Shown here piece after piece: positions 1 to 20,747 of a stretch of 41,980 bases of DNA (within the stretch, counting starts at the first letter, position 1; every line of letters starts with the position of its first letter). A program made the position numbers and the translations under genes. The notes under the pieces were generated by a model, which was not told the DNA's origin, ran no database searches, and saw only the letters and a program-made list of their open reading frames with translations. Source of the DNA: an uncultured Bacilli bacterium (lineage in GTDB: Bacteria > Bacillota_I > Bacilli_A > RF39 > UBA660); NCBI GenBank assembly GCA_947625085.1, contig CANQMV010000003.1, forward strand, positions 1-41,980, written 5' to 3'.

Positions 1-40
1 ACACATAAAAACCTAGTCTTATTCTACTAGTTTTATGTGT
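1..40. terminator. Inverted repeat, possible intrinsic terminator
   Basis: ACACATAAAA (1-10) is the exact reverse complement of TTTTATGTGT (31-40); CTAG/CTAG (13-16, 27-30) extends the stem after a 2-nt bulge. Context is cut by the window edge. Confidence 0.35.
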
Positions 41-341
41 CTTATTTTGTCAATATTTAAAATATAGTTACCTTTTAAATTAAGTACTATACCCCCCCCA
101 TGGTTGACAAATTGTCAACTTCTTTATATCCTGAATTAGCACAAATTTTCGATAAGTTTTTCAATAGATATTGCATTATTTTTATATTACACATATCATT
201 CACCACTTTCTAGTTTTTATAAGAATAGAATATCATATCAAATTTAGAATAGCAACTTATTTCTGATAATTTATAATTTAAGGCTTAGATTAATTTTTTA
301 TTTTTTTCATGTTTTTAACCTACTTTGAATAATTTCAAATT

Positions 342-773
342 TTATTTATATAATAAATCTAAAATTTCTTTTTCATTTATTATATTATTATTATACTTTA
401 ATTCCATATTTATATTTTTTAACCCATCATCATAATAACTCATTACATATTCAATCCCATCAGTTAATAGCAATTCTTTGACTAGATTTTTAAAGCAAAC
501 TTCACAACATATATTTTCTAAAAAAAATTGTTGATGTTTTAATTTATTTTTAGAATTTTTATCAAACGAAATAATCGAAGGGAAGCTGATGAAAGATGCT
601 AAAAAATCTTGAATATTAAAAATAGATATTAATTTAGAATTGTATTTTATATCAAGTTGATAAATATTATCATAATTAGTAGTTTCAATTTTGGAAATAC
701 CTTTTAATTTTGATATTTTTTTTAAAAGTAAACCATTAATATTGTAATCAAGTATTAAAGTTAATTCTTCCAT
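342..773 (-). CDS. Putative heavy-metal-associated (HMA)-like domain protein
   Basis: Second half has FFLENICCEVCFKNLVKELLLTDGIEYV, resembling the ferredoxin-like HMA pattern (xxCxxC...l...GV); the first half looks like a Cys-less copy of the same fold. Confidence 0.5.
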   Translation of the reverse strand: MEELTLILDYNINGLLLKKISKLKGISKIETTNYDNIYQLDIKYNSKLISIFNIQDFLASFISFPSIISFDKNSKNKLKHQQFFLENICCEVCFKNLVKELLLTDGIEYVMSYYDDGLKNINMELKYNNNIINEKEILDLLYK

Positions 774-863
774 TTTGACCTCCTTTTATTTTTATCTTTC
801 TTTTCAGAATAAAATTTTAACATTTTAATCGTGTTGAAAATCAATACATATTTCTAAATTAAC

Positions 864-2192
864 TTAAAAATTATAAGTTTTAACTTCTGGCAATTCTTTT
901 TCTTTAAAATTAATTTTTTCAGATTCTATATTAGAATTTAATTTATAATCAGGAATTAATCTAGTTTTATAAGGAGGTTTTCTTTCAAGTAAAACTATAA
1001 CTTCAAACAATTTCATTGTTTTTAATTCTTCTACTTCAATTAATCTTTCGTGTTTTTCCTTTTCACCACATAATTTACTAATTTCATCCATTGTATATAA
1101 ATCATTACTTCTTAAATAAATGAGATTACTAAAGCATAATCGTATAATATTTATATCATTATATTTTTGTTTTAAATCAGTAAAACTTTTTATAGAACAT
1201 AAGAATCTTATTCCTATACTTCTTGAATAATTAAGAACTTTAGGAAATTCATAAATAGGAGATAATTCATCAAAATCATCTAATATATAATTAACCATAT
1301 CTTTAGAATCTAAATATTTTTTAACATCATATAGTTGATCCAATAAAAGTGCTACTAAAGAATTGGAAGATAAACTATCAGTTTCAACTATAAAAATAGC
1401 AAACTTGTTTTTAAAGATATCTTCAAATGTGTAATCACTTTTGGAAAGTAATTTTGATAAACCTACCCTACACACAATTGGCTTCATTTTATAATTAAAT
1501 ACTGAAATAATACTATTTTTTGTTTCAACAGGTGCATTTAAAGTTCCAGCTAATAGTATATAAATAGGGTCAGTTTTATCTAAACTATTCATTAAATCTA
1601 AACTTTTTTTATTATCATTTAAACTATTAGCCATTAAATAAATACTATTTAAATTTATTTCATCAATAGATGCATTTTTAAATAAATGTAAAACTAGTCC
1701 TTCAAAAAAATCAATAGTTGTCTTAGTCCAATACGGATCAGACTCATTATTATCAGAAAATAAATAGAAACCTATTTTATCAAGTAATTTATATACTGTA
1801 TCAAAATCATCTTTTTTATAAAATTCATAAGGCAAATATAAAGGGTTAAAACAAGTTCCTAATTTTGGTCTTTCAAAATTAAATACATAAGTTTTATATC
1901 CTTCCTCTTTAAGACTTTTAATATTTTTTTCTAACATTTCACCTTTTTTATCAATAACAACCATTGATTCATGAGATTTAATCGTTGTTCTAATAAATGG
2001 TAAAACTATACTTTGTGTTTTACCACTTCCCATAGCTGAAACTAAAAGTGTATGTCCGTCTTTACTATTTACATAAACACTTCCCTTATCATAAATTATT
2101 GGAATTCCATTTTTAAATTCCTTAGCATTTAACTTATTTTCAGTTAAAACATCTTGCATTTCCTTAGTTGTTGCCCATTTGGCAAATTTCAT
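864..2192 (-). CDS. VirD4/TraG-like coupling protein paralog, no N-terminal TM anchor, degenerate ATPase motifs
   Basis: Collinear with ORF 3016-5364: KWATTKEM vs KWCDIKDM, SAMGSGKT vs GSTGSGKT, IDKKGE vs TDPKGE, FNPL vs WNPL, DPYWTKT vs DPFWEKT, ILDDFDEL vs LLDEFANM. Begins directly at the post-TM motif. Confidence 0.85.
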   Translation of the reverse strand: MKFAKWATTKEMQDVLTENKLNAKEFKNGIPIIYDKGSVYVNSKDGHTLLVSAMGSGKTQSIVLPFIRTTIKSHESMVVIDKKGEMLEKNIKSLKEEGYKTYVFNFERPKLGTCFNPLYLPYEFYKKDDFDTVYKLLDKIGFYLFSDNNESDPYWTKTTIDFFEGLVLHLFKNASIDEINLNSIYLMANSLNDNKKSLDLMNSLDKTDPIYILLAGTLNAPVETKNSIISVFNYKMKPIVCRVGLSKLLSKSDYTFEDIFKNKFAIFIVETDSLSSNSLVALLLDQLYDVKKYLDSKDMVNYILDDFDELSPIYEFPKVLNYSRSIGIRFLCSIKSFTDLKQKYNDINIIRLCFSNLIYLRSNDLYTMDEISKLCGEKEKHERLIEVEELKTMKLFEVIVLLERKPPYKTRLIPDYKLNSNIESEKINFKEKELPEVKTYNF

Positions 2193-2248
2193 AATATCAC
2201 CTCTTGATATATAATTAAAGCAGAATTATTGATATTTTTTAAACAATA

Positions 2249-2277
2249 TTGACTTTTTAACTATTTTTTATTAAAAT
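2249..2277 (+). promoter_or_regulatory. Sigma-A-type promoter for the AraC-family gene
   Basis: TTGACT (2249-2254), 17-nt spacer, TAAAAT (2272-2277); AGGTGA RBS before ATG at 2300. Confidence 0.55.
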
Positions 2278-2299
2278 ATGACAATAAAAAGGTGATATT

Positions 2300-2764
2300 A
2301 TGTATTCTAAACCATTAATAATTAACATCTTAATTTTTTTAAATAATAATTTATATCAAAAAATTGAATTAAATTATTTAGAAGAAATGTTTCATTATAA
2401 TAAATTTTATATTATTCGTTTATTTAAAAAAGAAATTGGAATAACCATCAATGATTATCTTAACAGAATGAGAATTTATAATTCCCTAAATGATATTGTA
2501 AATCCAAATTATTCATGTCTAAAAGTTGCTCTTTTATATGGATTCACTAATCTTGAATATTATTCTGAAACTTTTTCTAAAATTATAGGAATCAGTCCTT
2601 TAAAATATAAAAAATTTTATTTAAAAATGGATAATTTAGATAATGAAATAAGAAATAAAATAATTGAAAATGTCATAAATTTATCTGATTTAAAAGACAA
2701 ATGTAATTACTATATAAAAAATATAAAACCTAAAAATACTATTAAAATCAAAAAATTATATTAA
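2300..2764 (+). CDS. AraC/XylS-family transcriptional regulator (DNA-binding domain only)
   Basis: LEEMFHYNKFYIIRLFKKEIGITINDYLNRMRI...VALLYGFTNLEYYSETFSKIIGISPLKYKK matches the double-HTH AraC signature; no N-terminal sensor domain. Confidence 0.85.
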   Translation: MYSKPLIINILIFLNNNLYQKIELNYLEEMFHYNKFYIIRLFKKEIGITINDYLNRMRIYNSLNDIVNPNYSCLKVALLYGFTNLEYYSETFSKIIGISPLKYKKFYLKMDNLDNEIRNKIIENVINLSDLKDKCNYYIKNIKPKNTIKIKKLY

Positions 2765-3015
2765 AAATATTTATTTTCTATCTTTAAACAAATTCCTTAA
2801 TATAATAAATTAAATCGCTATAATCTTTAATTATTTCATTTATCAAAATATCACCTAAAAAAGAGCCTCATTTTGAAGTTCTTTAAGATGATATACAATT
2901 TTTTATACATATATTTATTTAAAATAATATAATTTTATAAATTTTCTTTTTATTTTTAATAATTTATGAGTGCAATTTAGATTTTTTAGCAATTGTTGTT
3001 TCAAAAAAAAGAAGA

Positions 3016-5364
3016 TTATTCATCGAAGAAGTCATCGAAAAATTCATCATCACTAACTTCTTGATATTTATTATCTTCTTTTAAATCCATATTAGGTTTT
3101 ATATTTTCTTTATTAGCTTCTAAAGATTTTTCTTTAATTTTATTAATTAATTCATCAATATTTTGAGGATTAGTATCTTCCTCTAAATATTCACTATCTT
3201 TAGGTGGAACTTGAAAATCATCTTCTTTAAAAGTATCTAAAAAATCTTTAAAATCTGGTTCCTTAGGTTGATTTACATTAATCTTTTCAGTTAAAATATT
3301 AGCATCTGGAACTTGATTATCTAATTTAGGAACTTCACTTGGAATTTGCCCATTATCATTATCAGATGTTAATTGTTCATTTTCTAAATCAACTTTTTGT
3401 TTAGCTTGCTCTTCTTCCTCTGCTAATCGCTTTTCTTCAGCTTCAATTTCAGCAATCTTAGCATCCAAATTTTGTAATATTTTATCTACATCAATTTTTG
3501 ATTCATCATTTGAAGGTGGAAGATTATTATTTTCAAACAAACCTGGAAATGGTGGTGGAAAAGATGAGCCTCCAAAAGGATTTCCGCCATCAAAGCCCCC
3601 AAAGCCTGGAAATGGTGATGAATTAAGAGCATTTTCTTTCTTTTTATTTTTGACAAATTCGCGAATATCAAATGTCTTTACTTCTCTTTTTTCTCTTGGA
3701 GTAATATTAGAAAGAGATGCTAATTTAAATGGTCTTCCCCAACTCATTTTATAGTCAGGAGTTAATTTAGTTTTAAAAGGTGGCATTCTTAACCGTCTAA
3801 TTATAACTTCATTCATTTTCAATTTTTGCAAATCACTAATGGTAATTAATGGTCTAGTTTCTTCTTTTTCTTTTTCGTCTTTTCCAGTTTTAACTTTTAT
3901 TTCGCCACACATTTTACTAATTTCTTCAAGAGCTCTTAACTCAGTTGAAATTAAATAAATCATGTTACCACAGTTGCCTTTAATAGTTTCAGCATTTTGT
4001 TCTCCATAAACTTCATTTAATTGAGCAAAGTTTTGAATAATCATCGTAAATCGCATTAATCTACTTCTAGCTGCAGTTATCATGGTTGTTACATCTTTTA
4101 AAGGTGGCATATTAGCAAACTCATCTAAAAGAAAATTAGTTCTAATTGGTAATTTTCCATCATGAGCTTGAGCAACATCAATTAAAGTTTCATAAATTTG
4201 TTTAATTAAAATGGTTACTAAAGCATGGTAAGTTTTCTTTTCATCTTGAATAACAATAAAAACAGCCGTTTTTTGTTTTCCAATATCTTGAATATCAAAA
4301 TCACTATAGGATAACATTTCTGATAAATTAGCTCGAGAAGCAAAGAGTTTAATTTTTTGTTTGAAAACGGCAATTATACTCATCTTGGTTTCATTTGGAG
4401 CTAGAATAGTACTTGATGCACCAATATATGCAGCTCCATTTGGGTCTTTACTATTAAAATATTCTTTTACATAAGTACTACCACCAATTTTTTCTTCTCC
4501 AACTGTAGTCATTAAACTAATAGTATTTAAATTAATTTCTTCTTCTTTAGCATCTTCAAATAAACCGAGACAAAGTCCTGAAAAGTAATCAGCTGAAGTT
4601 TTTTCCCAAAAAGGGTCCGCATTTTTATTTGATTCATCATACAAAATATTTAAGGCTAAATCATCTAGTAATTCAATAGCTTTATCTTGATTACCATTTT
4701 TCCATAATTTATAAGGTAAACTTAACGGATTCCATGCATTACCTCGAATTGGGTCACGGAAATTTAAAATAATAATCTTATAGCCTTTAGCTCTTAACAT
4801 ATTACTTTTCTTTTCGTATAATTCTCCCTTAGGGTCGGTGATAATCATTGATTCTCCATGTTTTGATAATAATTCAATCATTGGATAAATAATAGCTGTT
4901 GTTTTACCACTTCCGGTTGAACCTATTACTAAATTATGATATTCACTATCATCAACATAAATTTTCTTACCATCATTTATTAAGGCAATTCCAGCATAAT
5001 CTGAATGAACATCAGTTGGTAAAACCAATTTTAGTTGTTTTTTCATATCTTTAATATCACACCATTTTGAATAACCATCGCTATCAGATTTTTTTTCAGT
5101 TGAAATACCAAAGCCCTTATCAAATTCAAAGAAATAACTTTTACAACTAAGTAAAAGAGCTATAAGTGCTACAAAATAAAAAACTAAAGTAGAAGCAATT
5201 AAATCTTTTCTAAAAGCTAGTAAGGGATTTAACCCTGTAAATTCCCCCGTTGAAGTTAAACTTGATAAATTAGAAATGGCAACTGCAACAATATAAAGAA
5301 GTATTAAACAAATAATTAAAAACTTTTTCATATCGTTAACATCAAAACGTATTTTTAATTTCAT
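3016..5364 (-). CDS. virD4: Type IV coupling protein VirD4/TraG with long acidic C-terminal extension
   Basis: Two N-terminal TM segments, Walker A GSTGSGKT, TDPKGE, WNPL, Walker B LLDEFAN, ARSR..IIQNFAQL..YG; about 200-aa tail ending DDEFFDDFFDE. Confidence 0.92.
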   Translation of the reverse strand: MKLKIRFDVNDMKKFLIICLILLYIVAVAISNLSSLTSTGEFTGLNPLLAFRKDLIASTLVFYFVALIALLLSCKSYFFEFDKGFGISTEKKSDSDGYSKWCDIKDMKKQLKLVLPTDVHSDYAGIALINDGKKIYVDDSEYHNLVIGSTGSGKTTAIIYPMIELLSKHGESMIITDPKGELYEKKSNMLRAKGYKIIILNFRDPIRGNAWNPLSLPYKLWKNGNQDKAIELLDDLALNILYDESNKNADPFWEKTSADYFSGLCLGLFEDAKEEEINLNTISLMTTVGEEKIGGSTYVKEYFNSKDPNGAAYIGASSTILAPNETKMSIIAVFKQKIKLFASRANLSEMLSYSDFDIQDIGKQKTAVFIVIQDEKKTYHALVTILIKQIYETLIDVAQAHDGKLPIRTNFLLDEFANMPPLKDVTTMITAARSRLMRFTMIIQNFAQLNEVYGEQNAETIKGNCGNMIYLISTELRALEEISKMCGEIKVKTGKDEKEKEETRPLITISDLQKLKMNEVIIRRLRMPPFKTKLTPDYKMSWGRPFKLASLSNITPREKREVKTFDIREFVKNKKKENALNSSPFPGFGGFDGGNPFGGSSFPPPFPGLFENNNLPPSNDESKIDVDKILQNLDAKIAEIEAEEKRLAEEEEQAKQKVDLENEQLTSDNDNGQIPSEVPKLDNQVPDANILTEKINVNQPKEPDFKDFLDTFKEDDFQVPPKDSEYLEEDTNPQNIDELINKIKEKSLEANKENIKPNMDLKEDNKYQEVSDDEFFDDFFDE

Positions 5365-5382
5365 TTTCTCACCCTTTCAAAA

Positions 5383-6093
5383 TCATGCAACTTTATTATT
5401 GGTTTTGTTTCTTTTTCGTAAATGAAATACGATTAAAACTACTATTAAGCCAATTACACATAATATTGCAATTGATATATACATAACTAAATTATACACA
5501 TATATTTTCGATTTATCAAATGTTAAATTAATTTCTTTATCAAGAGTTTCGGAATTAATATTCCAAGTATAAGTATTAGTCTTTTTATTATAACTATCAG
5601 CATTATTAGAAGTTACAACATAAGGTAATTTAATATTAATATTTAAATTTGAAATAGGATATCTTACATCCGTTTCATCTTCAACATATGGTAAAAAACC
5701 ATTAGTTTTAATCGTAACTAAATTATTATCAGTTGTTACCTTTATATCTTCAAACATTTGGTCTTTAAAAACCGTTGATGCTGCATATTCAGATAAATTA
5801 TTAAATTTTTTTGAAGCTTCAACTCCTGGTTTAGAAATACTTTCAGTTACCATTTGGTAAGAATAATTATTATTTTTTAAAACACTCATTACTTCATCAT
5901 TATCATAAAAACTTTTAACAACCGTTCTTGGAAATTCTCTATAAAAATTATTAAAATACTCAGTTGTTGCCGTTATAAAAACTTTTTCATCAGCTGATAA
6001 ATCTCTTTTAATATTTAAATTATAATTAACATCAGCACAACCACTTAAAAGAAAAGGAATAATTAAAACAAAAATTAGTTTTTTTAATTTCAT
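5383..6093 (-). CDS. Lipoprotein with C-terminal TM helix (LppM-like)
   Basis: MKLKK plus hydrophobic stretch and lipobox LLSGC; C-terminal hydrophobic helix followed by HLRKRNK. The LppM-like resemblance is from pattern recall only. Confidence 0.6.
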   Translation of the reverse strand: MKLKKLIFVLIIPFLLSGCADVNYNLNIKRDLSADEKVFITATTEYFNNFYREFPRTVVKSFYDNDEVMSVLKNNNYSYQMVTESISKPGVEASKKFNNLSEYAASTVFKDQMFEDIKVTTDNNLVTIKTNGFLPYVEDETDVRYPISNLNINIKLPYVVTSNNADSYNKKTNTYTWNINSETLDKEINLTFDKSKIYVYNLVMYISIAILCVIGLIVVLIVFHLRKRNKTNNKVA

Positions 6094-6097
6094 CTTC

Positions 6098-8641
6098 TTA
6101 CCTCCTTGAAAGAACTACAAATGATTGACTAGCATTAGCAACACTTACTATATCACTTTCAAAGTCAGCCCAATAATTATCACGTGATGAACTTTTTGAA
6201 CCAGGGTCCCATACTAATACCTTGTTTCTTTCATCCTCCGTTTTAACTCCAACTAAGGCTATATAATGTCCACTTGAAGTTTTATATCTTTTAGCATTAG
6301 GAGCAATTCTTGCAACAACAACACTATTTCCAGTTGCAAGGTCACTAAGCAATTTATTAAGACCATTTTTATCATTTTTTAAAACCGTATAAGATGATAA
6401 ATTATAAAGACTAGCAGCAGATACTGCATAACTTGACCTATCACCATTGCATCGTCCAGCACTTTTTAATTTTTGACTTATTTCAAGCGGGTCATGTCTT
6501 TGATTAGTTAATAAAGAAACTGCAATTGCTGTTGATGATACACTACAACCTCTTGCAGAAATAGTACCACCTTCACAAAAACTATTGCTGCCTTTATAAT
6601 CAGATTGATAAAAATGAAAATCTTCGTTTAATTTAATACTTCCTTCATAATCTTCTTCGGTTTCAAAGTATAAACCTTCTTTGATATTGATAATATCAAA
6701 ATCAATCGCTGAAAAATATTTATTTAAAATTTCAATATAAGTCATACCATTTTTAGCATCATTCATTGCTTCAACTTGAGGTAAAGCATACCCTGGAACA
6801 TAATTATCGTTAGAAGTATTGTTATAATGATGTAAACTTTGTACATCTTTACTTCCAGTAAAAGTTTCTGGGGTTACGCCTTTTTTTACAATAACATCAC
6901 CAAATATTTCTCCAATTATTTCATCCAAAAAAGCATTTTGTTCTTCTGTTAAAGGTCTATGAGGAGTTACGCCTGAAAAACGATTAGTTCCAGTATAAGC
7001 GGTACCATATTTATGATTTCCATAAAAATATTGACAACCATAATGAGGGTCACAAGTTACTTGTCTGCAATTGCCAGTTGGAAAATAAAATTCCCCCGTT
7101 TTTAAATCAAAACCACTTTTGGAATCATTTAACATAAACGATAAGGCAACAATAGAAAGGGCCTTAATTCCTTCACGATACTCATCTTTCATGTAACTTT
7201 GAACTTCTCCCATTATAGTCCCTTTTATATAATCAGTTAAATTAAGAAAAGTTGGATATTCTGTTCCTTCATTAGTTAAGGGATTATTATAAACTGTCAA
7301 ACCATTTAAAATTTTTATTGTATAAGGGGTAAAACAAGTTTGTAAATAAACTGCACCTGAATCTGATACAAAATTAGAACTAACTGCTTTATCCTCAAAC
7401 ATATTTCTTGCAATATCTGCAAAATTATAAATATTATTTAATAAATTTCTTTTTGAATTTTCATCATTATTAACTAAAAATTCACTGTAATATGAAGTTA
7501 AAAAATCACTCTCTAATAAATTATTATAAGTTACCCCATCTATTTCTATATCTGTTTTATAAGTATTATTTTCATCTTTTTTTATCATTAAAGAGGCAAC
7601 TACGCCAATTTTTTTAGTTGCTGAAGTATAATCAATAGTTGTTCCCTCAGAAGTTTCTGTTTCAGTAGAATTATTTTCAGAGCCTGCTGTTGGTTCTTTA
7701 TTTAAACTATCTAAAGCATTTTCTAAGTCTGCATCTGTTATTCCTGAATCAGTTGAAAACAAATCATCTATTGGTTTATTCATATAACGATATACTAAAA
7801 TTGATTGTAATAAATATTTATCTATAGTAACTCCATATTTTTCTTTATAGTCATTAATTGTTTCTTCAATCTTATCATAAAATTCTTTTTCTAACTTTTG
7901 TCTTTCCGGGTCAGACTCTGAAAAAATATATGAAGAATTTTCAGTATTATTATATACTAAGTCAACAAAAAATTGATAAATTGCTATAAAGGGGCTAAAA
8001 AAATTTACGACTAAAATAATAACAAGAATAGCACCGATAATGGGAATAATTATAGGTGAAATCAAAGAAATAATTTTAACTATTCGACTAACTTTACCAA
8101 TATTTTTGACAATATCATTAGCTTCCGTATCATTTTCTTCTGTTACTGAATCAGTAGTTTCAGAATCAGTAGTATTGTTATTGCTATCATTAGTAGTTGA
8201 AGCTAAATTACTTTCATTTAAAAACCGATTTCTAAGCGATTGATTTTGATGTCTATTTTTTAAAGCCTCCGGAACATCAGAAGTTTGGTTAGAAAGATTA
8301 GAGTTTAATGGTTGACTTCTTCTTGGAAGATTTAAATTTCTATTATTTAAAGTACCACTTCCACTACTTTTATCTATTACATTAGAAGCAACGTCAACTG
8401 CTCCACTATCATTAAGTTTTTTATTTAATTTATTTGCAATTGGAACTTTGGAAATAGCTTCTCCTACCCCTTGTTCAATTTTCTGCCCTATTTTAGTTTG
8501 AGAAATTTTATCATAAGCAATATTTCCAAGTGTTCCTCCAAAGTAAGTAGCTGCTGCTTTACCAGCAGTATGAGCCGTATTAGTACCAGCTTGCTCTAAT
8601 TTTTGTTTTTCTTCTTTTTCATCTTCATTCATACGACTCAC
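6098..8641 (-). CDS. Membrane-anchored SpoIID/LytB-like plus peptidase C39-like cell-wall hydrolase (VirB1 analogue)
   Basis: TM near aa 190-225. LTDYIKGTIMGEV..EGIKALSIVALSF and ALPQVEAMNDAKNGMTYIEILNKYF match SpoIID/LytB motifs. C-terminal YQSD...RGCSVSSTAIAVS...SGHYIALVG...VWDPG gives the Q-C-H-D C39-like catalytic set. Confidence 0.7.
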   Translation of the reverse strand: MSRMNEDEKEEKQKLEQAGTNTAHTAGKAAATYFGGTLGNIAYDKISQTKIGQKIEQGVGEAISKVPIANKLNKKLNDSGAVDVASNVIDKSSGSGTLNNRNLNLPRRSQPLNSNLSNQTSDVPEALKNRHQNQSLRNRFLNESNLASTTNDSNNNTTDSETTDSVTEENDTEANDIVKNIGKVSRIVKIISLISPIIIPIIGAILVIILVVNFFSPFIAIYQFFVDLVYNNTENSSYIFSESDPERQKLEKEFYDKIEETINDYKEKYGVTIDKYLLQSILVYRYMNKPIDDLFSTDSGITDADLENALDSLNKEPTAGSENNSTETETSEGTTIDYTSATKKIGVVASLMIKKDENNTYKTDIEIDGVTYNNLLESDFLTSYYSEFLVNNDENSKRNLLNNIYNFADIARNMFEDKAVSSNFVSDSGAVYLQTCFTPYTIKILNGLTVYNNPLTNEGTEYPTFLNLTDYIKGTIMGEVQSYMKDEYREGIKALSIVALSFMLNDSKSGFDLKTGEFYFPTGNCRQVTCDPHYGCQYFYGNHKYGTAYTGTNRFSGVTPHRPLTEEQNAFLDEIIGEIFGDVIVKKGVTPETFTGSKDVQSLHHYNNTSNDNYVPGYALPQVEAMNDAKNGMTYIEILNKYFSAIDFDIINIKEGLYFETEEDYEGSIKLNEDFHFYQSDYKGSNSFCEGGTISARGCSVSSTAIAVSLLTNQRHDPLEISQKLKSAGRCNGDRSSYAVSAASLYNLSSYTVLKNDKNGLNKLLSDLATGNSVVVARIAPNAKRYKTSSGHYIALVGVKTEDERNKVLVWDPGSKSSSRDNYWADFESDIVSVANASQSFVVLSRR

Positions 8642-8662
8642 CTCTTAACTACTTTAATTTTT

Positions 8663-18170: not shown

Positions 18171-18875
18171 CTAATCTTTTTTATTTATAATAAATTCTCT
18201 TAGCATTTTGGTTAAAGCGCGTTTTTCAATACGGGAGACATAACTTCTTGAAATATGTAATTTTTTAGCGATTTCTTTTTGAGTTAATTCATCTTGATTA
18301 TTAAGTCCATAACGATAAGCAATTATTTCTTTTTCTCTTTTAGTTAAAACTTTAACATATTCACTTAATAATTTAATATTTTCTTTTTGATATAAATCAA
18401 GAGCAAAATCTGGTTTATCTGATTTTAATACATCAACAATTGTTATTTCATTGCCATCTTTATCAAAACCTATGCTTTCATTTATGGATATATTTTTATT
18501 ATATTTATTATTACTTCTGTAATACATTAAAATTTCGTTTTGAATACAACGAGCTGAATAAGTCGTAAGTCTTACGTTTTTATCTTTTGAATAAGTATCT
18601 ATTCCTTTAATAAGTCCAATTGTTCCAATGGAAATTAAATCATCTTGAAAGGATACATCATGTTCAAATTTTTTTACTATATGAGCTACTAATCTTAAAT
18701 TATGTTCTATTAATTTACTACGAGCTTGTTCTTTTTCTTCCTTTGAACCTTCTTTCATAAGTCTTATGCATTCATCTTCTTCATTTTTTGATAAGGGCTC
18801 AGGAAATAAATTATTAGAATAACTTCCTGTAAAAAAAAGCATTTCTTTAATGATATTAATTAAATTTAAAAACAT
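18171..18875 (-). CDS. sigK: Sporulation sigma factor pro-SigK
   Basis: Hydrophobic pro-sequence then FPEPLS..EE; LIEHNLRLVAHIVKKF, DLISIGTIGLIKGIDTY, TYSARCIQNEILM, TQKEIAKKLHISRSYVSRIEKRAL. Uninterrupted (no skin-type insertion). Confidence 0.88.
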   Translation of the reverse strand: MFLNLINIIKEMLFFTGSYSNNLFPEPLSKNEEDECIRLMKEGSKEEKEQARSKLIEHNLRLVAHIVKKFEHDVSFQDDLISIGTIGLIKGIDTYSKDKNVRLTTYSARCIQNEILMYYRSNNKYNKNISINESIGFDKDGNEITIVDVLKSDKPDFALDLYQKENIKLLSEYVKVLTKREKEIIAYRYGLNNQDELTQKEIAKKLHISRSYVSRIEKRALTKMLREFIINKKD

Positions 18876-18932
18876 ATACCACCAATTAAGTATATGTTAA
18901 AAAATCAAAATAAATTATAATTAATACGAAAA

Positions 18933-18959
18933 ACAGATAGTTCTGATAAAACTATCTGT
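18933..18959. terminator. 10-bp hairpin, probable terminator
   Basis: ACAGATAGTT-ctgataa-AACTATCTGT perfect stem. Confidence 0.5.
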
Positions 18960-19487
18960 AATGAGTTTAGAAAAAGTTGTACCATTTATATTATTTATTA
19001 AATAATATAAATTTTTTAATAAATATTATCAGTATTTACAACAACTACTTATCTTTGAGTTTCTCCTCTCAAAACAATTGTCCTACTTAGTGGCGATAAA
19101 GATTATACTTTTGATATAATTTTTCTTACCAGATAACTTTCTACTAAATTGCTAAAGTATTAATTAATAATACTTATTACCCACTAGGTAATCAAAGAAT
19201 AAAGTTAATTATTCTAAATAGCTAATCAAAGCTATAATATAAATTAAAATCATTTAATTTATATAAAGACTAAAATATAAATTCCAAAAGAATATATATT
19301 GAGTCCATCACTTATAATAAATATTCAAAAGAATAAATATTATAGTCGAAGCAATTCACATAGAGTTGTTATTCTTACTAAGCAATTATAATTTATCATA
19401 TAGTTCGACAGAAGTCAACAAATTTTATGATTTTTTTTAAATTATTTACAATTTGACATTAAGGTGTAAATTTAGTTTCCCTTGATA

Positions 19488-20747
19488 TTACTCATTAATA
19501 ATATCTTCACTATTTTCTTTTGTACTATTTATGCCTTGTTTTATAGCCCTTGAACATTCTTCGACTTTCCTACTTCCAATAATATTATTTGCAAATATTA
19601 TAATATTTGGTACTAAAAATATTAAAACCGCGGCTATTATTCTTGTTGTCATTTTCTTAAAAGCATTTTGAATACCATCTTTATCATCTATAAATACTAC
19701 TTTAGCAAAATCAAAAGTTGTTAATAAAATTAATAATATTGGAATACCTATATATATAGTTTTAATAACATTATTATTTAAAAAATTTAAAAAATCAGTT
19801 CCAAAAAGGTTTTCACAAGTTTCAGTTAAATCGTCTTTGCGGTCAATTAAACTAAGATAATATTTACTTAATATATAAACATTATTGGTATTTATCTCAA
19901 CTTTTTCATTAAGTTTGTTAAGGTCATTAGTAAATCTCCAAACATTGGCTTTCTTATTTTCGTCATATTCTTTTGTTTCAACTAAATATCTTGGATATTT
20001 GTCAGTATTTTTGTTATCAAGAATATTTTTCAAATCTCCAACGTCATCATCATTTACATCAAATTTAATATAAATTACATGAGAATCTGAATTAGAAGCT
20101 CCACTGGTCCATATAGTTCCTGTATATTCACCATTAACAGTTACATTAGTCTTAGCTATAGTTATTTTTGATTTGCCATAAACTTGATAATAAATTAAGC
20201 CATCAATAACTAGTTCTGTCCCCTCGTAAGAAGTTTGGCCTTCATATTCTCCACCTGATGTTTCTGTCTTTTTTATCCATGTTCCCATCTCCCAACAATT
20301 AGTTGTAATTCCCGCTGCTTCATTACAAACTTGCTGATTTGGTGATTGAATTGTTTCAAAATCAGTTAGGGAAATAGAACCTCCTTCATAATTATTAGAA
20401 GTTGTACGTAGAAATGCATAATATACCTGAGAAGGACAACTATCATTATTATCAAAATATGAAGCAAAAAAAGAACTATCTTGGTCTCCACTTATTACAC
20501 CATTAACCATATTAGTTCGGGTAGAAACACTAGCATATTTGCCAAATAACTCAAATGTCATTTGTTTTTTTTGATTAATAGTAAATATAAAAGTATTTGA
20601 AGCTTCTATAGCATCGGATGAGCCTGAACTATAATAAACACAATCTAGTCCACCAGATGGAACAGCAGCTTGAACATCCATTATATTTAAAAAATTAAAT
20701 GTAAAAAAACATAAACCAATTAATAAAGCTACTTTAACTTTTTTCAT
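19488..20747 (-). CDS. Secreted-domain protein with C-terminal VirB2/TrbC-like pilin hairpin
   Basis: Signal peptide ending VQA-A; ~300-aa polar, Cys-containing domain; C-terminus TCENLFG...IGIPILLILLTTFDFAKVVFIDDKDGIQNAFKKMTTRIIAAVLIFLVPNII...C has the two-helix VirB2-like pattern. Confidence 0.65.
   Translation of the reverse strand: MKKVKVALLIGLCFFTFNFLNIMDVQAAVPSGGLDCVYYSSGSSDAIEASNTFIFTINQKKQMTFELFGKYASVSTRTNMVNGVISGDQDSSFFASYFDNNDSCPSQVYYAFLRTTSNNYEGGSISLTDFETIQSPNQQVCNEAAGITTNCWEMGTWIKKTETSGGEYEGQTSYEGTELVIDGLIYYQVYGKSKITIAKTNVTVNGEYTGTIWTSGASNSDSHVIYIKFDVNDDDVGDLKNILDNKNTDKYPRYLVETKEYDENKKANVWRFTNDLNKLNEKVEINTNNVYILSKYYLSLIDRKDDLTETCENLFGTDFLNFLNNNVIKTIYIGIPILLILLTTFDFAKVVFIDDKDGIQNAFKKMTTRIIAAVLIFLVPNIIIFANNIIGSRKVEECSRAIKQGINSTKENSEDIINE

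Follow-up and report, generated by a model that had tools for sequence, protein, structure and literature searches.

The locus and its two-gene cassette

The open reading frame (ORF) at positions 864 to 2,192 of contig CANQMV010000003.1 (assembly GCA_947625085.1), from an uncultured Bacilli bacterium of the GTDB lineage Bacillota_I; Bacilli_A; RF39; UBA660, encodes a soluble protein related to VirD4. Coupling proteins of this kind are regarded as ATP-driven gatekeepers of type IV secretion, and a membrane-anchored VirD4 belonging to a type IV secretion system (T4SS) is encoded close by; the two proteins are referred to here as the short and the anchored VirD4. The window is the whole stretch of DNA that was analysed, i.e. 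positions 1 to 41,980 of the contig. Between the two VirD4 genes lies a divergent regulatory gene, and the region is organized as follows:

864-2192, minus strand: short VirD4-like gene, 442 amino acids (aa), without transmembrane (TM) segment or C-terminal tail, with nucleotide-binding and all-alpha domains (BLASTP, Pfam, AlphaFold2)
2198-2203, minus strand: ribosome-binding site GAGGTG, separated by 5 nt from the start codon (ATG) of the short VirD4 gene, read from the sequence
2214-2222, minus strand: candidate extended -10 element of the short VirD4 promoter, TGCTTTAAT, inferred from its spacing from the box
2239-2251, minus strand: conserved box CAATATTGTTTAA, consensus CAnTWTTGTTTAA with an A-rich 5' flank, kept in 20/20 cassettes
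2300-2764, plus strand: divergent AraC/XylS regulator of MarA/SoxS size, 154 aa, with two helix-turn-helix (HTH) motifs (Pfam PF12833/PF00165; NCBIfam MarA/SoxS/RamA alignments)
3016-5364, minus strand: anchored VirD4, 782 aa, two TM segments and an acidic C-terminal tail, coupling protein of the T4SS, outside the cassette (NF045973, 303 bits, cut-off 250)

The product of the gene at 2300-2764 consists of a bare two-HTH domain, with no ligand-binding or dimerisation domain. PF12833 spans its residues 29-105, the alignment to MarA pairs residues 7-105 with positions 11-109 of 124, and the protein can be aligned with full-length MarA, SoxS and RamA (NCBIfam). Regulators of this group share, in addition, a conserved C-terminal extension of around 50 aa that ends in a basic, KKLSIFK-like tail. 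A MarA-sized AraC-type gene of this sort (~155 aa) was found in divergent orientation directly upstream of the short VirD4 gene in 20/20 loci examined, which correspond to the window, five other species of its genus, seven species of other genera of the family, and seven metagenomic contigs whose short VirD4s are 35-45% identical to the window copy. The identity of the regulators to that of the window (75, 68, 67, 50, 50 and 43%) tracks the identity of the respective short VirD4s (76, 67, 72, 52, 45 and 40%). Full-length orthologues of the regulator were present in the six genomes of the genus that carry a short VirD4 (6/6) and in none of those that do not (0/17; hypergeometric p ~1e-5). The regulator and the short VirD4 were thereby shown to be inherited and lost as one unit. 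They make up a self-contained cassette of two genes and 2.3 kb, one copy of which contains ORF 864-2192.

A conserved element between the two genes

The region between the two divergent genes, 107 bp long in the window, contains a 13-bp box that is invariant in 20/20 intergenic regions, down to protein identities of 35-40%; the AT-rich spacers outside this box and its A-run could not be aligned among the 20 loci. A GGAGG or GAGGTG equivalent of the ribosome-binding site was present in the other cassette loci. In 16 of the 17 loci scanned, a -10 or extended -10 hexamer begins 19-21 nt past the box, so that the box spans roughly positions -46 to -33 of the short VirD4 promoter. No -35 hexamer of this promoter was recognisable at the box position. 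We propose that the box is the binding site of the AraC-type partner. In the genus of the window, the 5' half of the box doubles as the -35 (TTGACT) of a promoter-like site facing the regulator gene, and this overlap makes autoregulation of the regulator plausible.

The element appears to serve a single promoter. In the 1.19-Mb genome there is a single exact copy of the box (3.8 copies expected by chance) and copies with one mismatch are not in excess in the window (three, with five expected). Since the exact box is single in the genome and relaxed matches do not rise above chance, no wider regulon was seen in the genome or the window, and no copy precedes the T4SS genes. A generic promoter scan was uninformative in such AT-rich DNA (35 promoter-like sites, 33 expected), and the same was true of the terminator scan.

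Local G+C content over the cassette region (positions 1-3000) is 0.18-0.22, the lowest in the window, and 0.25-0.33 over the T4SS genes (3001-13000). The low value of the cassette region is consistent with a different history, or with a weaker constraint, than those of the T4SS genes.

The short VirD4 keeps the fold of coupling proteins and has lost most of their catalytic site

ORF 864-2192 is an uninterrupted frame of 442 codons. Residues 3-441 of its product align to residues 98-566 of the 782-aa anchored VirD4 with 37% identity (BLASTP, E 1e-86), and both proteins score above the gathering thresholds of PF02534, PF10412 and PF12696, the short one with 98.9 bits for T4SS-DNA_transf, 45.7 for TrwB_AAD_bind and 39.3 for TraG-D_C (cut-offs 20.1, 20.5 and 22). 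The nearest named family is the CD1115 family (NF045973), for which the short VirD4 scores 147.7 bits, under the cut-off of 250, and the anchored VirD4 303.5. No TM segment was detected in the short VirD4, where no hydrophobic 19-mer exceeds 1.4 on the Kyte-Doolittle scale; the anchored protein has two such segments, at residues 9-39 and 53-79. An N-terminal anchor has not been missed in the short protein, because an in-frame stop lies 12 codons 5' of its ATG, which also excludes that the gene is split and its anchor exon overlooked. The anchored VirD4 carries a 216-aa tail ending in DDEFFDDFFDE; nothing corresponds to this tail in the short VirD4, which stops where the core ends.

An AlphaFold2 model of the short VirD4, built with 50 family members, reached a pLDDT of 92 and a pTM of 0.92, and its best Foldseek matches were Cag-beta (8DOL, E 1e-16) and TrwB-deltaN70 (TM-score 0.65-0.73). 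From these matches, the nucleotide-binding and the all-alpha domains are both retained. TrwB and Cag5 were reached from the short VirD4 only with a family profile; a single-sequence phmmer search against the PDB returned spurious matches only (designer 'Cake' repeats and the vitamin D receptor).

The catalytic motifs read SAMGSGKTQ, NYILDDFDEL and LCSIKSFTDL in the short VirD4, as against GSTGSGKTT, NFLLDEFANM and MIIQNFAQL in the anchored one. In a family-profile alignment, D305-D306 correspond to D356-E357 of TrwB, R324 corresponds to R375 of TrwB, and K335 and D339 take the positions of both Gln residues of the QSxxQL motif of TrwB and Cag-beta. The site is not that of a canonical type IV coupling protein (T4CP), defined by GxxGxGK[ST], hhhhDE, an Arg finger and QSxxQL: only the Lys/Thr of the P-loop, the Walker B Asp and R324 remain. 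These changes differ in their spread, the first Ser of the P-loop being private to the window copy, the DD/DN of Walker B being common to its whole sub-clade, and the change of Q to K/R in IQNFAQL being family-wide among short VirD4s. The window protein is probably still able to bind nucleotide, with poor or no turnover.

Soluble VirD4-like proteins form a separate lineage in which catalytic residues decay repeatedly

In a collection of 5.8 billion proteins, around 100 clusters of homologues of 415-457 aa, with 36-76% identity to the short VirD4, rank before the first long VirD4, and an exhaustive representative search recovered 328 proteins at E<1e-30. Soluble VirD4-like proteins of ~400-460 aa constitute a monophyletic family: the short VirD4s, with all the AraC-linked copies among them, share one side of a branch that has a support of 97 with FastTree and an SH-aLRT of 98 with IQ-TREE, and in both trees the anchored VirD4s of the same bacterial family cluster elsewhere, with other long VirD4s. 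Because of this separate grouping of the anchored proteins, the short VirD4 is, as judged from both phylogenies, part of an old, separate lineage of soluble VirD4-like proteins. Its origin as a recent duplicate of the neighbouring virD4 was considered and rejected, the short clade being deep and separate in the tree.

The short proteins diverge rapidly. Within the genus they are 57-59% identical, compared with 90-96% for the core of the anchored VirD4; the divergence is even across both halves of the nucleotide-binding domain and the all-alpha domain, and tree path lengths are 5-10 times those of the anchored protein. The ratio of nonsynonymous to synonymous substitution rates (omega) was saturated with YN00 for nearly all pairs, and NG86 values are given instead; these are approximate, and amount to 0.29-0.41 for the closer pairs of short VirD4, 0.10-0.19 for the anchored VirD4s of these genome pairs, 0.22-0.31 for the AraC-type regulator, and 0.33 for the window short VirD4 and its nearest relative. 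Such values point to purifying but relaxed selection, clearly not to neutral evolution. Flags of 'stops inside' the gene in two genomes (G208 and G251) were rejected as marks of pseudogenes, since both loci have intact ORFs (410 and 441 aa).

The state of the catalytic positions in both clades was as follows:

Walker B Glu: short clade, 17/53 representatives, with at least nine independent changes on the tree; anchored clade, invariant (22/22 and 26/26)
First Gln of QSxxQL (sensor): short clade, 7/53; anchored clade, invariant (22/22 and 26/26)
P-loop: short clade, unrecognisable in ~14/53 (e.g. ANLDSDKES, TEDDIQKEN), often with loss of the Arg finger too; anchored clade, intact

Two of the members with a wrecked P-loop were looked up (P0143 and P0166), and in both an intact AraC-type gene and the box still adjoin the short VirD4 gene. 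In the sub-clade of the window, the first Gly position of the P-loop is G, A, A or S, with GKH in one member, and the Walker B pair is DD or DN; its members retain the Lys, the Walker B Asp and the Arg finger. A canonical site (GSTGSGKT/LDEF) is found in family members of the G306 type. Because catalytic residues decay repeatedly without loss of the ORF, the regulator or the box, we conclude that the function of the family would be independent of ATP hydrolysis.

These results bear on an earlier reading of the ORF, hereafter the original prediction, which had described it as an anchor-less and probably inactive second VirD4. The alignment to the core, the absence of TM segments and acidic tail, and the motif changes it listed were all confirmed by BLASTP, the Kyte-Doolittle scale and motif alignment. 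Its view that the gene is not a decayed pseudogene is borne out by the intact ORF, omega values of ~0.3-0.4 with NG86 and more than 100 clusters of intact homologues. As for inactivity, family comparison indicates that ATPase activity is very probably poor or absent, but nucleotide binding is probably kept.

The resident T4SS and the distribution of the cassette

The anchored VirD4 was found in 292 of the 301 genomes of a sample of the order, almost all of them members of one family with more than 150 genera and genomes of 0.6-1.7 Mb, and it is single-copy in 22/22 other species of the genus. The order of the T4SS genes is kept within and between genera (738-aa protein, 107-aa protein, 208-aa protein, VirB4, C39-like hydrolase, lipoprotein and VirD4), as can be seen at positions 3016-16710 of the window and in the relatives L021-L023 and L028-L031. 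Two proteins of 497 and 457 aa are encoded upstream of the T4SS. No relaxase was found in or near the T4SS operon, nor any relaxase of PF03432 or PF02486 in the genome of the window, where the sole relaxase-family match is a 472-aa Mob_Pre (MOBV) frame (contig C41:7120-7641). Since the anchored VirD4 is nearly universal and the gene order conserved, the T4SS is a core chromosomal trait of the family and not a conjugative element.

The cassette is accessory and has a much narrower occurrence: six of the 23 species of the genus (26%) and ~20 of the 301 genomes of the order sample, i.e. ~7% of the species of the family, spread over ~16 genera. In the five other genomes of the genus that have it, the short VirD4 is on another contig than the T4SS (5/5). 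Its flanks differ at nearly every locus and are mostly made up of housekeeping genes, such as those for PolC/PolA, enolase, Obg, Suf, GlnS/RelA and arginine deiminase. Apart from the window, the only locus of the set with a T4SS-like gene nearby is L025, where a T4SS-pilin-like gene is located no more than 7 kb from the cassette. In three relatives from the genus, the genes directly after the anchored virD4 correspond to contig C60 of the window's genome, and this pattern suggests that the cassette entered the site beside the T4SS as an insertion specific to this lineage, together with a downstream ORF of 143 aa and probably one of 569 aa. The adjacency to the T4SS in this genome would not be the ancestral arrangement.

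Among ~350 genomes of other families in a sample of the class, no close short-type match (E<=1e-60) was obtained, and only two genomes had a close VirD4 of any kind. Likewise, tblastn against sequenced plasmids and phages gave no close relative of the short VirD4, the best matches having 24-28% identity. The cassette seems confined to the lineage where the T4SS is core.

The genomic context departs in several respects from the original prediction. That the short VirD4 is a component of the T4SS locus was not supported, as the gene is on a different contig in 5/5 other genomes of the genus that carry it and T4SS-adjacent only here. The premise of a simple conjugative element proved wrong in view of the near-universal, chromosomal T4SS (292/301 genomes), and the divergent AraC-type gene at 2300-2764, which is the real partner (20/20 loci), had been passed over. 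Sporadic occurrence and neutral evolution had been named in advance as outcomes that would speak against the prediction; the occurrence is indeed sporadic (6/23 and ~20/301), but evolution is not neutral (omega ~0.3-0.4).

Proposed function and alternative explanations

Our proposal is that the short VirD4 may be a regulated, largely non-catalytic VirD4-like binder, either an inducible adaptor or receptor or a dominant-negative brake of the resident T4SS; we see about an even chance of this being correct. The AraC-type regulator would bind the box as a class-II, MarA-like activator and turn on the short VirD4 gene, and in this genus it would probably repress its own promoter. The short VirD4 would work by binding and not as a motor. 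Given that the sub-clade of the window retains GKT, the Walker B Asp and the Arg finger, its members would probably still bind ATP, with poor or absent hydrolysis. The most economical target would be the resident T4SS, in the form of VirD4 protomers, VirB4, or substrates with T4SS signals. The short protein might serve as an additional receptor or adaptor for substrates in the cytoplasm, or it might mix with or cap the ring of the anchored VirD4 in a dominant-negative manner. The proposal includes a conditional version of the hetero-oligomers with VirD4 that the original prediction had put forward; a structural subunit that is constitutively present is unlikely, since the T4SS of most species operates in the absence of the cassette.

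A more specific version can be formulated tentatively, although we regard it as doubtful: the cassette might be a transcriptionally controlled brake or gate, the short VirD4 docking on the anchored ring or on substrates and blocking or re-aiming secretion. In a bolder variant, the basic C-terminal tail of the regulator would be bound by the short VirD4, or exported by the T4SS, and cassette expression would in this way be coupled to secretion. Chaperone/AraC pairs in type III systems tie expression to secretion activity. Searches of the literature for a dominant-negative coupling-protein paralogue with a regulator of its own found none.

Several observations weigh against the idea of an inducible adaptor or brake. 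Adjacency to the T4SS in one, perhaps two, of the 20 cassette loci is about what chance would give, and no physical or genetic link between the two emerged from the analysis. The T4SS is present in all carriers of the cassette but also in 97% of the non-carriers, so that their co-occurrence is uninformative, and the 17 species of the genus without a cassette retain the T4SS, which makes the cassette dispensable for it. The pairing of regulator and box rests on conservation and geometry, and the box could be an unusual promoter element. The omega values come from NG86 applied to AT-rich sequences with near-saturated synonymous sites. Finally, fast evolution, patchiness and the defence-like neighbours in L026 and L004 fit a conflict system equally well.

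Such a conflict or defence module, unrelated to the T4SS, would consist of a regulated, soluble VirD4/HerA-like nucleoside triphosphatase (NTPase) with affinity for DNA or proteins that senses or blocks invading DNA of plasmids or phages, or it would be a counter-measure of a mobile island. The patchy distribution, the variable chromosomal sites and an evolution 5-10 times faster than that of the anchored paralogue are in line with this, as are the relationship of the fold to the HerA ATPases of defence systems and the presence of island- or defence-like neighbours in L026 (NOV_C, AAA_15/21 and a kinase), L004 (ADP-ribosylglycohydrolase-DUF6508) and L027 (UvrD and a Mob_Pre relaxase). We nevertheless consider it unlikely. 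There was no significant match in PADLOC-DB 2.0 (the best being mad8, E 0.0026, 15 bits), many loci are set amid plain housekeeping genes (PolC/PolA, enolase, Obg, Suf), and no effector gene, be it a nuclease or a toxin, is conserved beside the cassette. Repeated loss of the NTPase site would be unusual for an NTP-driven defence sensor, and in the class sample the family is restricted to one lineage with a core T4SS. The model of the original prediction, in which the short VirD4 is a pseudo-ATPase subunit in standing hetero-hexamers with the anchored VirD4, seems quite improbable for a protein whose cassette is missing from 74% of the genus and ~93% of the species of the family, all of which keep the T4SS. 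The cassette is not syntenic with the T4SS in other genomes, the short VirD4 has its own dedicated regulator and promoter, and it evolves far faster than the protein with which it would share a ring, the core identity of which is 90-96% in the genus. What gives the model its appeal is the common fold, with 37% identity across the whole core, the adjoining position of both genes in this genome, and the retention of the R324 Arg finger and the P-loop Lys with loss of the catalytic Glu in the sub-clade of the window, a pattern found in non-catalytic subunits of other ring ATPases; the Arg finger is also gone, though, in the most degenerate members of the family.

There is, lastly, the case in which the cassette was functional in ancestors and the window copy is a functionless relic drifting towards loss. 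The Ser private to this copy at the start of the P-loop, a local G+C that is the lowest in the window (0.18-0.22) and the frequent loss of the cassette in the genus could all be read in this manner. However, 442 codons are intact in DNA of 20% G+C, where stops arise easily, the ribosome-binding site, box, -10 and regulator are all intact as well, omega is 0.33 relative to the nearest relative, and members with far worse active sites are still maintained with their regulator, so we think a relic very unlikely.

Relation to known systems

The short VirD4 shares its fold and Pfam membership with the VirD4/TraG T4CPs, such as TrwB of R388, Cag-beta of H. pylori and the proteins of NF045973. It differs from them in having neither TM anchor nor C-terminal tail, in the replacement of the catalytic Glu and of both Gln residues of QSxxQL, in its position outside the transfer operon, in its own AraC-type regulator, and in the repeated, family-wide loss of the ATPase site. 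Nor is its gene encoded with a T4SS/relaxase module, being T4SS-adjacent only here and surrounded elsewhere mostly by housekeeping genes.

T4CPs without a TM domain are a recognised subfamily, represented by TraJ of pIP501, which has the small membrane partner TraI (PMC7434980). TraJ, like the short VirD4, is an anchor-less VirD4-like protein in a Gram-positive-type (Bacilli) lineage. It is, however, the only T4CP of its plasmid and a working one, encoded inside the tra operon by its membrane partner (PMC7434980), whereas the short VirD4 coexists with an anchored VirD4, is located outside the T4SS operon in nearly all genomes, and seemingly can dispense with catalysis. There is no adjacent membrane partner either, the neighbours of the short VirD4 being the AraC-type regulator and the soluble 143-aa ORF. 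A precedent for the control of a VirD4 ring by a bound protein is offered by Cag-beta, the best structural match of the short VirD4 model: to judge from the title of PDB entry 8DOL, binding of the small protein CagZ checks ring assembly and ATPase. CagZ is an unrelated small protein, while the candidate modulator in our case would be a VirD4 paralogue under transcriptional control.

With regard to the regulator, MarA, SoxS and Rob are monomeric AraC/XylS activators that recognise asymmetric boxes of ~20 bp overlapping the -35 of class II promoters. The cassette promoter resembles theirs in having a single asymmetric box over the -35 position at a fixed distance from the -10, with binding of the regulator being predicted. 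The differences lie in the extra C-terminal extension of ~50 aa and in the presence of the box at one promoter only, with no regulon. Among paralogues of coupling proteins, TcpB of the Clostridium perfringens plasmid pCW3, a second and shorter FtsK-like paralogue of TcpA, is reportedly dispensable for transfer. In that account TcpB would be comparable to the short VirD4 as a second, shorter coupling-protein paralogue in a Firmicute that the machine can do without; unlike the short VirD4, it belongs to the FtsK/TcpA family and not to VirD4, its gene is part of the tcp locus, and it is not known to have a regulator of its own.

Full-text literature searches returned no account of a T4SS in Bacilli of the RF39 type and none of comparable VirD4 paralogues that are orphans or second copies, and the combination of an AraC-type regulator and a soluble VirD4-like protein in a cassette is apparently undescribed. 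To our knowledge, the only anchor-less coupling proteins described so far are the functional T4CPs of a small number of plasmids from Gram-positive bacteria. Because a soluble VirD4 clade with its own regulator and box has been retained despite the destruction of the ATPase site, our results point to a non-motor role of the VirD4 fold, which might be that of an adaptor, a decoy or a brake. The host family is formed by uncultured gut Bacilli with small genomes, unusual in having a core chromosomal T4SS, and a small cassette with a sharply defined cis element could provide an experimental handle on the purpose of this unexplored system.

Neighbouring genes and additional observations

Downstream of the short VirD4 gene, the window contains a further small gene:

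342-773, minus strand: 143-aa ORF with a CxxC motif (CCEVC) and weak similarity to HMA/MerTP (MerTP, E 0.004, well short of the cut-off)

The only homologue found for this ORF has 50% identity and is situated 4.6 kb downstream of the cassette in locus L004; none was present at the other loci of the genus. The 143-aa ORF is probably a mere neighbour and not a conserved member of the cassette.

In L004 (G008:C30), a second and different short VirD4-like gene, at 6446-7750 and coding for 434 aa, follows directly downstream of the short VirD4 gene of the cassette. Its product falls in a well-supported clade of its own, with proteins of 435-605 aa (11 representatives), and the gene is followed by an ADP-ribosylglycohydrolase-DUF6508 gene and a metallophosphatase gene. 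A type VII secretion-like locus adjoins the cassette in L003, whose cassette is 67% identical; it comprises a WXG100-like gene and a 1545-aa FtsK/SpoIIIE (EssC-like) gene, 1.5-4.5 kb downstream of the cassette (12867-20515). In L027, a Mob_Pre gene is placed ~6 kb downstream of the cassette. A gene for an oxidoreductase with DAO and Rieske domains (~471 aa) adjoins the cassette in both L003 (11379-12797) and L025 (9906-11321), two loci whose short VirD4s are only distantly related; the oxidoreductase gene may recur as a neighbour of the cassette, or mark a site at which the cassette preferentially inserts.

Near the end of the contig, positions 93-120 of the window hold a stretch of eight C residues and, immediately after it, an 8-bp inverted repeat whose tail is rich in T (GGTTGACAAATTGTCAACT), and this inverted repeat is the sole terminator-like site within the first 3.2 kb.

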